Source: Escherichia phage vB_Eco_mar004NP2 | Direction: 5' to 3' (one strand) | DNA: 64,000 bases | Sequence record: NC_048205.1 | In this document: positions 137-63,673 of the stretch, in pieces | Position numbering within the stretch: the stretch's first letter is position 1 | How the letters are laid out: each line of letters starts with the position of its first letter | Notes under the pieces: generated by a model | The model's database searches: none | Told to the model about the DNA's origin: nothing | What the model saw: only the letters and a program-made list of their open reading frames with translations | Program-made: the position numbers and the translations under genes

Positions 137-165
137 TTGACTTTTAGCCCTAGTTATTATATAAT
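137..165 (+). promoter_or_regulatory. sigma70-type promoter TTGACT-N17-TATAAT
   Basis: -35 at 137-142, -10 at 160-165, 17-bp spacer; followed by conserved ATATACATAAATT box; upstream of ATG 199. Confidence 0.5.
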
Positions 166-198
166 ATATACATAAATTAGTTAAGAGAGGTATATATT

Positions 199-954: not shown

Positions 955-983
955 TTGCTTTTTGCTAAAAATTTTGGTATAAT
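955..983 (+). promoter_or_regulatory. sigma70-type promoter TTGCTT-N17-TATAAT
   Basis: -35 at 955-960, -10 at 978-983; followed by conserved TATAAATTGATGA box. Confidence 0.5.
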
Positions 984-1040
984 ACTTATATAAATTGATG
1001 AAAAGGCTATCTACACACTACAAGAAATAGGGGTATTCCA

Positions 1041-1418
1041 ATGAACTATGCATATCTAATTATTAATAATAACGTAGTTTGTGGTACTCGCGCCGTTGAG
1101 ATGGGTATTACAGAAGAAAAGTATAAGTCACTTCCAGAAAAGGAACAACAATATTATGTTGAAGAAGCTGCTTGGGAATATGCTGATGTTTATCCCGAAC
1201 AGCGTGAAGATCGCGTTACTATTGTTGTCTCTTTGGGGCTGGTTGGCTGTGATACCGAAGTTGATACAGACCTAGAGACTTTAGAAGAGTGGGGAGAATT
1301 AGACATTTCAGCTAAAAACTCTTTAATCCGTGAGGCTTTTTGGGAAGCAGTTGACTGCCATGTTGTCTTTGAGCCTAACGATGAGGAAGCTGAGAAGCAT
1401 ACTAACCACTGGGGATAA
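1041..1418 (+). CDS. hypothetical early protein (125 aa)
   Basis: ORF with RBS AGGGG; acidic protein. Confidence 0.6.
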   Translation: MNYAYLIINNNVVCGTRAVEMGITEEKYKSLPEKEQQYYVEEAAWEYADVYPEQREDRVTIVVSLGLVGCDTEVDTDLETLEEWGELDISAKNSLIREAFWEAVDCHVVFEPNDEEAEKHTNHWG

Positions 1419-3163: not shown

Positions 3164-3192
3164 TTGCTAAAATGCCTAAGTTTCTGTATAAT
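3164..3192 (+). promoter_or_regulatory. sigma70-type promoter TTGCTA-N17-TATAAT
   Basis: -35 at 3164-3169, -10 at 3187-3192; conserved TTTATAAATTGATGAGAAGG downstream box. Confidence 0.55.
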
Positions 3193-3222
3193 TACTTTAT
3201 AAATTGATGAGAAGGAATCAAA

Positions 3223-3671: not shown

Positions 3672-3700
3672 TTGCTTTAAGCCTTAAAATTCTGTATAAT
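3672..3700 (+). promoter_or_regulatory. sigma70-type promoter TTGCTT-N17-TATAAT
   Basis: -35 at 3672-3677, -10 at 3695-3700; same downstream ATAAATTAATGAGAGAGG box. Confidence 0.55.
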
Positions 3701-3714
3701 AAGTTCATAAATTA

Positions 3715-6071: not shown

Positions 6072-6104
6072 AGGCCAGGACTTAGTTGTTCTGGCCTTTT
6101 ATGT
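6072..6104 (+). terminator. rho-independent terminator
   Basis: hairpin GGCCAGGAC..TCTGGCC followed by TTTTATGTTTT. Confidence 0.55.
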
Positions 6105-10420: not shown

Positions 10421-10530
10421 AGTTACCCACAGACTTATTAACAGCACGATTTGATTTGACAGAATCCTAGCCATTTTGAGGCGTTATCAACAGACTTATC
10501 CACAGCTTATCCTACTGTATAAATATACAG
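10421..10530. repeat. left arm of ~110-bp inverted repeat with DnaA-box-like sites and 16-bp palindrome
   Basis: reverse complement of 14001-14110 aligns with identical blocks AGTTAYCCACA..TTATTAACAGCAC and ACTTATCCACAG..TTATCCTACTGTATAAATATACAG. Confidence 0.8.
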
Positions 10531-14000: not shown

Positions 14001-14110
14001 CCTGTATATTTATACAGTAGGATAACATGTGGATAAGTCTGTGGATAAGTCCTTATATCGTCGCCTATCGTGTCAAATCATTTTGTGCTGTTAATAAACT
14101 TGTGGATAAC
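14001..14110. repeat. right arm of ~110-bp inverted repeat with DnaA boxes
   Basis: TGTGGATAA at 14027-14035, 14039-14047, 14100-14108; palindrome CTGTATATTTATACAG 14001-14016. Confidence 0.8.
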
Positions 14111-14392
14111 TTAAATGATAGTGGTTCTCACTTAGGACGATAGTTTCTTATAGTTATTATTTCTATCGGTTACGATTTCTTATAATTATTATTTCTCATT
14201 AATTTATAAGTATATTATATATCATGAAATAGTTAGTTGGCTAATGAGATTTTCCGTGATTAATAGTCTGCTAACAGTTCCGGCTGTTACAATCCACCAG
14301 CATGATTATCATCCTAGCAACTATTAGTCTGCTATCTTTCCGATGCATACTAACAAATAAAAGTCAATTAATTTATTTCATAAAATAAGTAG

Positions 14393-14425
14393 TTATCCAC
14401 TGGAAAATAAAAGTCAAGTGGATAA
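14393..14425. promoter_or_regulatory. inverted pair of DnaA boxes
   Basis: AGTTATCCAC..N17..GTGGATAACT, perfect 10-bp inverted repeat matching DnaA-box consensus TTATCCACA. Confidence 0.6.
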
Positions 14426-14826
14426 CTAGGAAAATTTCATTTTTGCTTTTGGGGATAAGTTATCAACAAGGCTAGAATGCGCCTAAAACGCCCTATAACG
14501 CGATGAAGTTTTTAGCCATGCCATTGCATTGCCTACCCTCGTTTATCGCTACCACGAGCTTTTTAGTTTTTGTCAAGTAGGGCAAGGCAAATATAAATGA
14601 AAAAATTACTTGCCAACCTGCTGGGTTTTATGGTATTCGCGCGCCCGTTTCCTTTAATTTTAGTGCGCCGCGCCCAGGTCGCCGCACGGTGTCCGGTGGC
14701 ATTTTGTCTTTACGTTTCTTTACAAAAATAAGGTTGCGCCATTTTTACTATTTGCTATTATTTATCTCGTAGGGCGGCAATGACGAACTACACGGCGGGA
14801 AGTTTACCGCCGCGCTCTTTAAAAAT

Positions 14827-16127: not shown

Positions 16128-16325
16128 ATGATCTTTTACCCCACTGAATCGTTAATTTTAGGCTTATTTATTATGGCGGCCTCGTTATTATTCGCTTATT
16201 TTCAAAATGATTTAGACTCATATTATTTTAAACGTAAGTCTAAATTGGCAAAGCGTTTAGGTCTGATTTGTTTTATTGCCGCCATTGCTTGTGGTGTTAG
16301 TTCTAGCCTTATGCCTTTAAATTAA
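16128..16325 (+). CDS. small membrane protein (65 aa)
   Basis: two hydrophobic segments; conserved upstream box. Confidence 0.5.
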   Translation: MIFYPTESLILGLFIMAASLLFAYFQNDLDSYYFKRKSKLAKRLGLICFIAAIACGVSSSLMPLN

Positions 16326-18911: not shown

Positions 18912-19646
18912 ATGAATAAAGCTATCATGAATCTTTCCCGCAGCTTCCCGCATATTTCCCGCGTCATGATTTGGGATTTAGACGGCACTATCATTAATTC
19001 TTTCCATCGTGTAGCACCCTGCTTTGATAGCGAGGGCAATTTAGATTTAAATAAGTATAAAAATGAAGCGTGTAAACACCATTTAATAATGCAAGATACT
19101 TTATTGCCATTGGTTGAATATATGCGCCAGTGCATGAATGACGCAAATACTTTAAACATTATTTGCACCGCTCGACTGATGAGTAAGTCGGACTATTATT
19201 TCTTGCGTAAACAAGGGTTGCGCGGTCGTGGTAATAGTAATATCCGCGTATTTTCCCGCGATACACTACACAAATATTTTAAAGCTGATAAGGTTAGCGA
19301 AATATACCACAGCAAAGACGCAGTATATAAATCTTATTATTTTGAATTATTTAAACAGTTATATCCTAACGCTGATTTTACAATGATTGATGATCATAAA
19401 GGCGTGCTATCAGCGGCAGCGTCATACGGATTTAAAACGCTGGACGCACAAGCCGTTAATGATATTCTATCAATCGGCGTGGCATTGATAGGTGAAACCT
19501 TTATTGATGAATCTCTCGACGATGATAATGATTATCAATTCCTAGCTGACCGTTTAAAATTATGCTGGGAAGGTATGACCGAGGAAGAACGCGCAGAATA
19601 TAGTTGCAGTCCTCAACAATATATTGAGAAATTAAAAGTTGCCTAA
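18912..19646 (+). CDS. dmp: HAD-family 5'-deoxyribonucleotidase (dmp-like)
   Basis: N-terminal HAD motif I MIWDLDGTI; 244 aa. Confidence 0.7.
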   Translation: MNKAIMNLSRSFPHISRVMIWDLDGTIINSFHRVAPCFDSEGNLDLNKYKNEACKHHLIMQDTLLPLVEYMRQCMNDANTLNIICTARLMSKSDYYFLRKQGLRGRGNSNIRVFSRDTLHKYFKADKVSEIYHSKDAVYKSYYFELFKQLYPNADFTMIDDHKGVLSAAASYGFKTLDAQAVNDILSIGVALIGETFIDESLDDDNDYQFLADRLKLCWEGMTEEERAEYSCSPQQYIEKLKVA

Positions 19647-20630: not shown

Positions 20631-20897
20631 TTACAGGTAATTAGATTGCTCTAGTTTAAATTTACAATCACCATATTTAAGGTCAAACTGACTGAGATCC
20701 CACCACCCAAATTTAGTACGGAGCTGTACTACTGGAAAGCGATCTCCCTTAATACGAACTTTTTGAACCTTGAGACCGTAATATTCTTCTCCCGCACCAC
20801 CAAAAGATTTTACAAATCCCGTACAAAATGGTTTGGGAGCAGGTACACAACCAGATAATATAACTGTGGCAACTAGTGCAATTACAAACTTTTTCAT
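20631..20897 (-). CDS. llp: Llp-like lipoprotein (receptor-blocking, superinfection exclusion)
   Basis: signal peptide plus lipobox LSGC; 88 aa; divergent from receptor-binding protein gene, as in T5 llp/oad. Confidence 0.65.
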   Translation of the reverse strand: MKKFVIALVATVILSGCVPAPKPFCTGFVKSFGGAGEEYYGLKVQKVRIKGDRFPVVQLRTKFGWWDLSQFDLKYGDCKFKLEQSNYL

Positions 20898-20982
20898 ATT
20901 TATCTCTCCATTTCTAATTTATGAATTTATTATAGCAAAATAGAGGGATGAAAGCAAATACATTTTTATAATAGGAGATTAT

Positions 20983-54279: not shown

Positions 54280-54556
54280 ATTTTATTTCCTCTTTAAAGA
54301 TTAATTTCGATTTGTTAATTGCGATTAGTGGGTTAGTGTCGATTACTAAACGTGGTATCCATACTGGAACATATTGTATGTTCAAACTAGGATCGTTTGT
54401 AAACTTGTATTCGGCATAATTTCGTAGACTTAAAATTCCTAGATATTCTGCCAGTTGTCTATTAGACAATTTATTTGGATTATCAACTATTGTTGACTCA
54501 TTCAAAATGAATGAGGAACCGACCAATAATTGGTGAGCATCAGGCTCTATGAGCAT
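54272..54556 (-). CDS. hypothetical protein (94 aa)
   Basis: ORF downstream of two promoters. Confidence 0.5.
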   Translation of the reverse strand: MLIEPDAHQLLVGSSFILNESTIVDNPNKLSNRQLAEYLGILSLRNYAEYKFTNDPSLNIQYVPVWIPRLVIDTNPLIAINKSKLIFKEEIKYG

Positions 54557-54663
54557 TCTTTTGAATAACTTAATAATTAGGTCGGAATTTCCTCTAGCTA
54601 GTAAGTATAGCTTTTCATAATCGAAGAATTTAATTTTTGTTTTCTCCTCGAATTTATGTATAT

Positions 54664-54693
54664 ATTATACTAGATTTCGAGAGAATTTAGCAA
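54664..54693 (-). promoter_or_regulatory. sigma70-type promoter TTGCTA-N18-TATAAT (minus strand)
   Basis: reverse complement read directly; contains conserved TATAATATATACATAAATT element. Confidence 0.5.
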
Positions 54694-54764
54694 CTAAAAT
54701 TTTTATTTTTCTGCTTCGGACTTTCTTATCAATCCGAAACTTTCTCTCTCAAATTTATGTATAT

Positions 54765-54793
54765 ATTATACATCATTTATGAGCTGTTGCCAA
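54765..54793 (-). promoter_or_regulatory. sigma70-type promoter TTGGCA-N17-TATAAT (minus strand)
   Basis: second copy of TATAATATATACATAAATT element; overlaps 3' end of helicase gene. Confidence 0.5.
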
Positions 54794-56129
54794 ATGCAAT
54801 TTTAGCTAATTGAACTGCTTTCTCAGGAGTCATGGTAATAGTTTTCCACCCATTGTTACGATATACTGCCATACGTCCAGAAGCCTGCCTTAGTCCAGTG
54901 CCACCTTTCATAATTAGATCTACAACAATAGGGTCGAGTTTACCATCGACAATACGTTGAACACGTCCTGCAAGCTGTTCAATGAGAGATTCATTATTAA
55001 TGAGGCTTCCCATTATTAAACAAGACAGCTCATTAAGGGAAATACCTTCAGAGAAGATACTTTGAGCTGCTGCAAGTACACAAGGCCCACCTTTTGCTAT
55101 ATCTTCCTGAATTTTTAATCGGTCATCCAAGTGAGTTGCCCCTATAATTTCATATGTTGTAACACCACGTTGTGCAAGAGCTTCTAGTACTGTTTGGATT
55201 AACTCTGTTCTATCACTTACAATGAGTACTTTATGTCCCATATTCACATATAAATGTGCTAGGTTTATAATAGTTTCTCGATATTCAGGATGATTATACA
55301 CATCATTAGCACGTAATGCCCACGGTACGTTTTGGTTTCCAGACAACTCAACTGGTACGGAGTACCTGTGGATTGTAGGTGCAACAGTATTATTAACCGG
55401 TGGGCTAAAGATCTTATATCCAAAGAAATCTTTGAACATAACTTGTAGACCATCTTTACGTTTTAATGTTCCAGATAGCCCAATCTTATAGCGAGCACAT
55501 GATATTTCTAGGAAGTTAGTGAAAGTTGTAGCCACACAATGGTGAACTTCATCAACTATAACAGTACCGAATACTTTAGAAAGATTATTCGCATGTTTAT
55601 TCACTGTTTGAATATTACTGACTACAATTGGTGGATCAATATTGTATTTCCCAGAACCTATAATACCTGGCTCAAATCCAAACCATTTACGAACTTCTGC
55701 TGCCCACATCTCACGAATAGATGTGTTAGTACAAATTACCAGAGTTTTCTGGCCAAATTTATACGCAAGTGCAAGGGCTAGGATAGTTTTGCCAAATCCA
55801 GGCTTACCATTAATAATACAGGTATCATCACACTCTTCATATATTGGGAGCTGGTCTTCTTCACGCAGCTTGAACTTAGGTTTTGGTATATCTACCGGAG
55901 CTAATGTGCGTTTATCGACTAATTCGTATTTTACTCCTTTAGCATCTAGTAAGTCCAGACGCGTAATAGGAATCCACTTAATCTCTTTGGCAACAACACC
56001 ACTATTCTTATACATAATAGGGTATTTACTAGTCATTGTCTCAATGTGATAAGTGGTTTGCTTACTACAATAATCCCAAAGTTCATCATCGGGCTTGAAA
56101 TAGGCTTTATTAGATATAACAACCTTCAT
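54777..56129 (-). CDS. superfamily 2 DNA helicase (DExH)
   Basis: Walker A GKPGFGKT, VIVDEVHH motif; 450 aa. Confidence 0.8.
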   Translation of the reverse strand: MKVVISNKAYFKPDDELWDYCSKQTTYHIETMTSKYPIMYKNSGVVAKEIKWIPITRLDLLDAKGVKYELVDKRTLAPVDIPKPKFKLREEDQLPIYEECDDTCIINGKPGFGKTILALALAYKFGQKTLVICTNTSIREMWAAEVRKWFGFEPGIIGSGKYNIDPPIVVSNIQTVNKHANNLSKVFGTVIVDEVHHCVATTFTNFLEISCARYKIGLSGTLKRKDGLQVMFKDFFGYKIFSPPVNNTVAPTIHRYSVPVELSGNQNVPWALRANDVYNHPEYRETIINLAHLYVNMGHKVLIVSDRTELIQTVLEALAQRGVTTYEIIGATHLDDRLKIQEDIAKGGPCVLAAAQSIFSEGISLNELSCLIMGSLINNESLIEQLAGRVQRIVDGKLDPIVVDLIMKGGTGLRQASGRMAVYRNNGWKTITMTPEKAVQLAKIAFGNSS

Positions 56130-59183: not shown

Positions 59184-59276
59184 ATTTAATCTCCTCTTGG
59201 TAAGTAAGTATAACTTCAGTGTTTCTTCTCTAACTTACCAATATATTATATCAAAATATTGGGATAATAGCAAATA

Positions 59277-59606
59277 CTATTTATAGGTGTGAAGTAATTT
59301 ACGCATTTCATTGCGCTGCTTTTCTAGTACCCGAAATTCTTCATCTATACGCAGAAAAGCATCTAGCGCTTTCATAGATTGCTCAGTATTTTCTACAACA
59401 GCCCAATCATATGTTAGGTATACCTCTTGACCTGTATCTTTTACTTTAAAGTAAATATAAGATGCAGGTAATTTAGGATCACCAAATAAATGGAAATTCT
59501 TTCGTTTATTAAGGGACTCCAGTGTTGTAAACCGCTCTAGTTTAACCTCTTTGTGTGTTACACTATCATACACTGGAACATCCGCATAAATATATACATA
59601 TTCCAT
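59277..59606 (-). CDS. hypothetical protein (109 aa)
   Basis: ORF. Confidence 0.5.
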   Translation of the reverse strand: MEYVYIYADVPVYDSVTHKEVKLERFTTLESLNKRKNFHLFGDPKLPASYIYFKVKDTGQEVYLTYDWAVVENTEQSMKALDAFLRIDEEFRVLEKQRNEMRKLLHTYK

Positions 59607-59632
59607 AGTAGCTCCTCAGTTATTTAGGACTA

Positions 59633-63617: not shown

Positions 63618-63644
63618 ATTTCTTCCTTATCAATTTATATAAAT

Positions 63645-63673
63645 ATTATAGCAAGTATTTAAGCATTTAGCAA
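63645..63673 (-). promoter_or_regulatory. sigma70-type promoter TTGCTA-N17-TATAAT (minus strand)
   Basis: reverse complement read directly; between the two ligase ORFs. Confidence 0.55.

Follow-up and report, generated by a model that had tools for sequence, protein, structure and literature searches.

Promoter of the T5.038 ortholog and two others with the same 19-bp core

At 137-178 on the plus strand of the window (the whole 64,000-nucleotide stretch analyzed, from Escherichia phage vB_Eco_mar004NP2), we identified a promoter upstream of ORF 199-630, which encodes a 143-aa ortholog of T5.038. Its -35 hexamer, TTGACT (137-142), is followed by a 17-bp spacer (143-159), the -10 hexamer TATAAT (160-165), the A/T-rich and partly conserved discriminator ATATAC (166-171; -6 to -1), and, after this 6-nt gap, the initial transcribed block ATAAATT (172-178; +1 to +7), with a predicted start at A172. 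Upstream, the A-tract AAAAAA (127-132) resembles an A/T-rich, UP-like "-43" block, and downstream, a Shine-Dalgarno sequence, GAGAGG (185-190), precedes the ATG (199-201), giving a leader of 27 nt. No Pfam match was obtained for ORF 199-630, and the only match among the promoter-proximal ORFs was DUF7167, in ORF 1041-1418.

The window is T5-like: over the stretches tested, it matches Salmonella phage SPLA5b at 100% identity, its identity to many Tequintavirus genomes is approximately 95-99%, and ~440 T5-like genomes in the phage collection gave matches. The 43 promoters annotated in the T5 st0 record (AY692264) were mapped onto it. The focal promoter is the ortholog of the T5 "promoter" feature at 19368-19442, which is annotated upstream of T5.038 in both T5 records (NC_005859 and AY692264) and is unnamed.

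A search of the window located TATAATATATACATAAATT exactly at 160-178 (+), 54651-54669 (-), and 54752-54770 (-), bearing out the initial annotation, which had described a 19-bp core common to three sites on both strands. By homology to P-N25, the 19-mer spans -12 to +7 and comprises TATAAT, a 6-nt A/T-rich discriminator, and ATAAATT from +1. Judged on sequence, one exact core is that of the T5.038-ortholog promoter, and the other two are those of P31A and P31B. In T5, all three 19-mers recur without mismatch at the orthologous sites, 19381 (-), 67470 (+), and 67571 (+), and comparison of T5 P31A, P31B, and the T5.038 promoter with the window sites showed the same elements in a close relative, with no substantive difference.

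P31A and P31B form a tandem pair downstream of D10. P31A (54752-54793, -) consists of TTGGCA (54793-54788), a 17-bp spacer, TATAAT (54770-54765), ATATAC, and ATAAATT (54758-54752), and its atypical -35 sits inside the 3' end of the D10 helicase gene. P31B (54651-54693, -) consists of TTGCTA (54693-54688), an 18-bp spacer, TATAAT (54669-54664), ATATAC, and ATAAATT (54657-54651). The 281-bp region with both promoters is identical to T5 at 278 of 281 positions, and P31A itself is identical in T5. NC_005859 labels the two "promoter P31A" and "promoter P31B," whereas AY692264 annotates P31B only, as a "putative promoter." P31A was also kept in STG2 and, with a different discriminator (ATCTGT), in Klebsiella phages.

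All three exact sites have a -35 hexamer 17-18 bp before TATAAT (TTGACT at 17 bp in the focal promoter, TTGCTA at 18 bp in P31B, and the atypical variant TTGGCA at 17 bp in P31A) and an A/T-rich block near -43, which is AAAAAA in the focal promoter, AAAAATAAAAATTTT in P31B, and the weaker CTAAAATTGC in P31A. An extended -10 (TGn) was considered and rejected, with TTA, ATG, and TAG preceding TATAAT at the three sites and no TG found by the promoter scan. In many members of the class, TG directly abuts TATAAT, one base out of register for an extended -10.

The leaders of P31A and P31B are each longer than 100 nt. The interval between the two promoters (54694-54740, -) holds a 10-bp hairpin (54740-54713) followed by the A-tract AGAAAAATAAAAATTTTAG, which is the UP-like block of P31B, and the P31A leader folds better than its shuffles (z = -4.5). 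The hairpin had no covariation support, variants among the contigs being wobble-compatible changes and disruptive singletons, and no T-run follows it. In STG2, the outer stem has 2 uncompensated mismatches, and in the Klebsiella phages, the 3' arm of the hairpin is the same and the 5' arm is relocated. A 26-base element within this interval, GAAAGTCCGAAGCAGAAAAATAAAAA, is invariant across 5 phages, with flanks only ~74% identical. A known structured RNA at 54400-54900 was rejected, the best Rfam hit being a chance-level match to SprD (18.9 bits vs a gathering score of 100), as was a conserved micro-ORF in the P31A leader, where T5 and the Klebsiella phages do not have matching reading frames. 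No tRNA was found in the window.

Other promoters of the class and their shared architecture

Several further sites in the window have the same layout. An early promoter at 955-996 (+) reads TTGCTT-N17-TATAAT ACTTAT ATAAATT, the P-F30 ortholog at 3164-3205 (+) reads TTGCTA-N17-TATAAT TACTTT ATAAATT, and another early promoter at 3672-3713 (+), the ortholog of the T5 putative promoter at 16243-16310, reads TTGCTT-N17-TATAAT AAGTTC ATAAATT. On the minus strand, the early promoter at 20916-20957 (TTGCTT-N17-TATAAT AAATTC ATAAATT) lies upstream of ORF 20631-20897 (-); we assigned it as the counterpart of the T5 llp promoter by position only, T5 DNA homology not being detected. The P-K28a ortholog upstream of ligB (63632-63673, -; TTGCTA-N17-TATAAT ATTTAT ATAAATT) is 100% identical to T5. 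Ppol (59232-59273, -; TTGCTA-N17-TATAAT ATATTG GTAAGTT) corresponds to T5 Ppol from the -10 onward, and its upstream part belongs to an inserted cassette.

The core TATAAT ATACTT ATAAATT at 14201-14243 (-), in the ORF-free pre-early repeat region, is preceded at 18 bp by a poor -35, TAGCCA, and lies ~470 bp upstream of the closest same-strand ORF. T5 keeps the counterpart at 6075 (+), where no promoter is annotated, and from its sequence, a promoter function of this core appears doubtful.

A rho-independent terminator hairpin, AAAGCCTGATC...GATCAGGCTTT (919-946, +), precedes the promoter at 955-996, and its T-tract enters the -35. Through this overlap of terminator and promoter (919-960), the T-tract also supplies the promoter's A/T-rich -43 block, and the T5 record in RefSeq shows the same arrangement in its annotation.

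Aligned on the -10, members of the class have, in order, an A-tract near -43, TTGCTw (more rarely TTGACT) at -35, 17-18 bp, TATAAT, a 6-nt discriminator, ATAAATT, a purine-rich stretch with the Shine-Dalgarno sequence, and a start codon ~25 nt from +1. The commonest base at -45 to -42 is A in 8 of the 9 window sites and in 16-17 of 19 T5 sites, and within the discriminator, A at -6 and T at -3 occur in 18 of 19 T5 sites while the remaining positions vary. The 19 bp can thus be read as 2 conserved blocks, TATAAT with A at -6 and ATAAATT at +1 to +7, joined by a semi-free discriminator.

The initial annotation had given the grammar of all recognized promoters as TTG(A/C)(T/C)(A/T)-N17/18-TATAAT. 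This form fits 7 of the 9 motif sites, the exceptions being P31A (TTGGCA) and the 14201 site (TAGCCA), and it describes the early class but not the pre-early and late promoters in the window. All 9 motif sites are co-oriented with the downstream ORF, none lies inside the ~28-kb late structural block, and the ATAAATT block is absent from annotated promoters of the other two classes, pre-early (P-D/E20, P-H22) and late (P-G25, P-J5), which makes the grammar a property of the early class and not of the whole genome.

Occurrence of the 19-mer within and beyond the window

A test that is independent of how the sites were picked took all 102 TATAAT hexamers of the window: for 9 of them, exactly 6 nt separate the hexamer from a downstream ATAAATT (0.03 expected), and the other gap lengths between 0 and 14 gave no case. 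With up to 3 mismatches allowed, the 19-mer had 8 matches against 0.19 expected, a number reached in 0 of 100 dinucleotide-preserving shuffles; the copies with 2-3 mismatches are at 978 (+), 3695 (+), 14201 (-), 20916 (-), and 63632 (-). The shuffles and the gap-specific enrichment ruled out chance in A/T-rich DNA. The exact identity of three copies is not special by itself, because the probability that some discriminator 6-mer recurs 3 times among 9 sites is ~0.05 if the class consensus is assumed. The triple identity is thus only mildly unusual, and the class consensus is the strong signal.

The same spacing was found in other phages. ATAAATT at gap 6 occurred 15 times in T5 (0.05 expected), 21 times in the Epseptimavirus STG2 (0.034 expected), 6 times in a Klebsiella T5-like phage (0.007 expected), and 8 times in Vibrio phage VPT02 of the subfamily Ermolyevavirinae (0.016 expected). 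Gaps other than 6 were essentially empty in the compared genomes, with 51 of 53 cases in 4 genomes at gap 6. The identical 19-mer occurs 4 times in 50 kb of VPT02, with unrelated flanks (7.5e-6 expected by composition). That ATATAC turns up again in this phage suggests a preference for particular discriminator words.

The promoters of VPT02 (1-50000) have further features in common. Eight of them share TATAATAGTTACATAAAGT, and 7 of these also share the subsequent leader TGAGAAACGGAGAT, so that the promoter-leader repeat unit is longer than that of T5; the exact 19-mer is at 4 further promoters. At several promoters, a hairpin spans the -35 and the spacer, as in gggTTGCTTcggcagccc.

We also considered whether the 19-mer copies are remnants of a recent duplication or gene conversion, the sequence itself being unselected. 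P31A and P31B are in tandem, 101 bp apart, and have the same discriminator as each other in T5, the window, and STG2, and a cassette with both junctions on TATAATA (described below) indicates that cores can recombine. However, identity among the three exact copies is limited to 19 bp and ends exactly there, the spacers and downstream leaders being unrelated, and the copies occupy orthologous positions in phages whose coding DNA is 70-86% identical. The same 19-mer is found at non-orthologous Vibrio phage promoters, P31A is unlike P31B in the Klebsiella phages, and Ppol and P-N26 cluster by locus. Such an origin is thus extremely improbable. A dispersed repeat or mobile element was likewise rejected, with flanks unrelated beyond the 19 bp and copies at conserved orthologous positions.

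Conservation of the initial transcribed block

Conservation beyond the -10, which the initial annotation had taken to suggest selection on the initial transcribed region, was measured between orthologous promoters. Ortholog pairs were chosen by TTGNNN-N17/18-TATAAT together with homology of the downstream gene, and +1 to +7 was not used; conservation of the -10 and of TTG in these pairs is circular, both being selection criteria. Across 24 pairs between T5 and STG2, identity was 0.95 at +1 to +7, 0.90 in the discriminator, 0.82 in the spacer, 0.88 at +8 to +20, 0.82 at +21 to +44, and 0.86 in coding DNA. Between T5 and the Klebsiella phage, for which there were only 5 pairs, the corresponding values were 0.89, 0.73, 0.55, 0.58, 0.46, and 0.70. 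Selection past the -10 is supported because +1 to +7 is better conserved than spacer, leader, and coding DNA, in agreement with that earlier suggestion. The STG2 ortholog of the focal promoter kept TTGACT, TATAAT, and ATAAATT, with changes in the spacer, leader, and discriminator (ATTTGT for ATATAC). Deviant +1 words also persist across genera, including GTAAGTT at Ppol (T5, STG2, and the Klebsiella phage) and ATAGTTT at P-N26.

The conserved bases might instead act as RNA, with 5'-pppAUAAAUU forming an unstructured A/U-rich leader for S1-type ribosome recruitment or mRNA stability. Two observations fit such a role: leaders at most motif promoters are very short and uniform, with a median of 25 nt, a usual range of 21-27 nt, and a purine-rich Shine-Dalgarno sequence at +9 to +17, and at 8 promoters of the Vibrio phage, almost the same leader sequence recurs over its full length to the start codon. 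Against it, the distance from ATAAATT to the start codon ranges from 21 to 39 nt, with more than 100 nt at P31A and P31B, where the block is nevertheless kept, whereas the distance to the -10 is fixed. In STG2, one ATAAATT block starts 8 nt before a tRNA gene, which is untranslated, and +8 to +20, the Shine-Dalgarno sequence included, is less conserved than +1 to +7. The fixed spacing to the -10, the variable spacing to the start codon, and the tRNA case tie the block to initiation and not to translation. An RNA role is compatible with a role in initiation, and DNA-level constraint and a function of the RNA 5' end are not separable here because they concern physically the same bases; as the explanation of the block, we regard it as unlikely.

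Probable role of the block in transcription initiation

The three 19-mers are very probably the -12 to +7 cores of sigma70 early promoters, with +1 to +7 selected for a role in initiation. The assignment as sigma70-type early promoters of a T5-like phage, already made in the initial annotation, agrees with the orthologs annotated in the two T5 records and with the architecture of P-N25. T5 P-N25, used in expression vectors as the "T5 promoter" and in promoter-escape work as the model, reads TTGCTT-N17-TATAAT AGATTC ATAAATT TGAGAGAGGAG, a layout that the window sites share, and P31A continues as ATAAATTTGAGAGAGAAAG, nearly the N25 initial transcribed sequence (ITS). The differences are in the discriminator, AGATTC in N25 and ATATAC here, and in the -35, where the focal promoter has TTGACT and P31A has TTGGCA. 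N25 itself lies upstream of D3, outside the window.

N25 initiates with ApU, +1 being the A of ATAAATT, and its +1 to +11 segment has 9 A/T and 2 G/C base pairs (PMC12464699). Because this start and composition fit ATAAATTTGAG, +1 was set at the first A of ATAAATT, and the three exact promoters are predicted to start at 172 (+), 54758 (-), and 54657 (-). The native N25 ITS is described as giving fast promoter escape (PMC12464699), and replacement of N25 +3 to +20 (anti-ITS) as lowering productive output ~10-fold and raising abortive synthesis (PMC12464699, quoting Kammerer 1986 and Hsu).

In the mechanism that we propose, host RNA polymerase holoenzyme would bind the A-tract near -43, the -35 (TTGCTw or TTGACT), and the perfect TATAAT 17-18 bp on, and transcription would begin at the A of ATAAATT, 7 nt past the -10. 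Selection for a role in initiation would retain both the +1 to +7 block and the A/T-rich discriminator with its A at -6 and T at -3; these elements may set the start site at A-U, ease melting, stabilize open complexes, and speed clearance by a very tightly held polymerase, as measured for the native N25 ITS. We infer that escape or open-complex behavior is the selected property. Some consensus sites may be inactive in vivo, because primer-extension products were obtained for only 11 of 19 T5 promoters tested (Klimuk 2020, PMC7472727). A start at the A of ATAAATT is established for P-N25 in vitro and, by primer extension, for a few early promoters (Klimuk 2020), and the early kinetics of the class are known from published work.

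Absence of the block from the annotated pre-early and late promoters also bears on another reading, that the discriminator and +1 block are a class mark through which a phage factor, the RNA polymerase-binding protein gpT5.026 or another, lowers early promoters at the early-to-late switch. The discriminator is the main difference between early and late promoters of T5, ATATT being the discriminator element of the early class, and gpT5.026 weakens polymerase contacts at -5/+2, its loss raising early and lowering late transcripts; the discriminator difference has been proposed as the basis of this differential effect (Klimuk 2020, PMC7472727). Conservation reaching a Vibrio phage with a different host is also in line with a class mark, but operator-like symmetry is absent. 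As T5-promoter expression vectors illustrate, promoters of the N25 type need no phage factor to be extremely strong in uninfected E. coli, so that the block is at least not dependent on such a factor. Recognition by a phage factor is an unlikely, though still live, account of the conservation, either as a rival of a role in initiation or in addition to it.

TAAATT (+2 to +7) matches TATAAT at 4 of 6 positions, including the two key ones (A2 and T6), and could as a -10-like element re-engage sigma70 on the non-template strand, causing a pause at approximately +16 to +18 that would serve as an early-transcript checkpoint. Sigma70 pausing at -10-like elements in the initial transcribed region is established for lambda pR' (PMC4005639). 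The N25 literature examined, however, reports no such pause on the native ITS and describes native N25 as escaping efficiently, and the -10-like reading is not general because other promoters keep the variants ATAAAGT, GTAAGTT, and ATAGTTT. We consider a pause of this kind highly improbable as the reason for conservation.

The published T5-type consensus is very close to what was found here. The consensus of phage AKFV33 (TTGCTw, 17-18 bp, TATAATA, with AAAAATT at -43 and TAAATT at +1; Niu 2012, PMC3326045) gives the grammar of the initial annotation, which had proposed a comparison with published T5 early promoters, almost verbatim. Published consensus logos of T5-like phages do not draw attention to this 19-mer or to its recurrence in the Vibrio phage, and we found no genome-wide start-site map for T5-like phages in the literature. 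Class-specific homologies downstream of +1 were reportedly already noted by Gentz and Bujard in 1985. The observation of the 19-mer is thus confirmed and its interpretation supported, but the sites are annotated in T5, the +1-block consensus is published, and the escape role of the N25 ITS has been studied for decades; it is a correct rediscovery of what is already known and carries little weight as a discovery. The present analysis adds quantitative confirmation that constraint on +1 to +7 is stronger than on spacer, leader, and coding DNA, that the position of the block follows the -10 and not the ribosome-binding site, and that the rule and the very 19-mer reach a Vibrio phage of another subfamily. 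Hundreds of T5-like genomes currently lack regulatory annotation, and these results can help to place promoters and start sites in them.

Polymerase cassette with junctions at promoter cores

Between the primase and polymerase genes, we identified a 376-bp cassette (59256-59631, -) with an ORF of 109 aa (59277-59606) that had no Pfam match. The cassette is absent from T5, STG2, and the Klebsiella T5-like phage. Phage records that contain it number 49, and in both of those checked (BF23 and phiLLS) it occupies this locus; the BF23 annotation marks its promoter as "absent in T5 phage." Both junctions fall exactly on a -10 TATAATA, and the cassette carries its own -35, spacer, and TATAATA at its end. 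Because it starts and ends at TATAATA, the inserted gene uses the old upstream half of Ppol, and pol is left with a hybrid promoter.

Junctions at promoter cores were found for 3 of ~12 unique clean indels, an enrichment that is only suggestive, the proper null being intergenic space and not the whole genome. We tentatively raise the possibility, which we think improbable on present evidence, that promoter cores double as crossover points for the gain and loss of early genes, as mobile "promoter-gene" cassettes in T5-like phages. In the promoter-early stem-loop (PeSL) cassettes of T4-type phages, described by Arbiol and colleagues in 2010, near-identical early promoter units are said to flank small genes in variable regions. 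The likeness here lies in terminator hairpins that abut or overlap promoters (919-960, and the Vibrio phage hairpin) and in one cassette bounded by cores; the differences are another phage family, another consensus, and a gene-shuffling role that is represented by a single clean junction only.

Insertion near position 1000 and the pre-early region

Relative to T5 st0, the window has a 418-bp insertion at 1000-1417 (+), extending from promoter +8 to the Shine-Dalgarno sequence of the next gene. It carries ORF 1041-1418, of 125 aa, with the DUF7167 domain, and in STG2, a gene of similar size occupies the same place after the orthologous promoter.

The ORF-free pre-early region contains a cluster of DnaA boxes, at 14028-14468 and 10423-10504. 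TTATCCACA is exact at 14028, 14040, and 14101, with 4 one-mismatch copies nearby and only 4 exact copies in the whole 64 kb, and inverted repeats and 21-nt direct repeats adjoin the boxes. This cluster has been published, the region being that of the injection-stop signal (Davison, bioRxiv 10.1101/866236).
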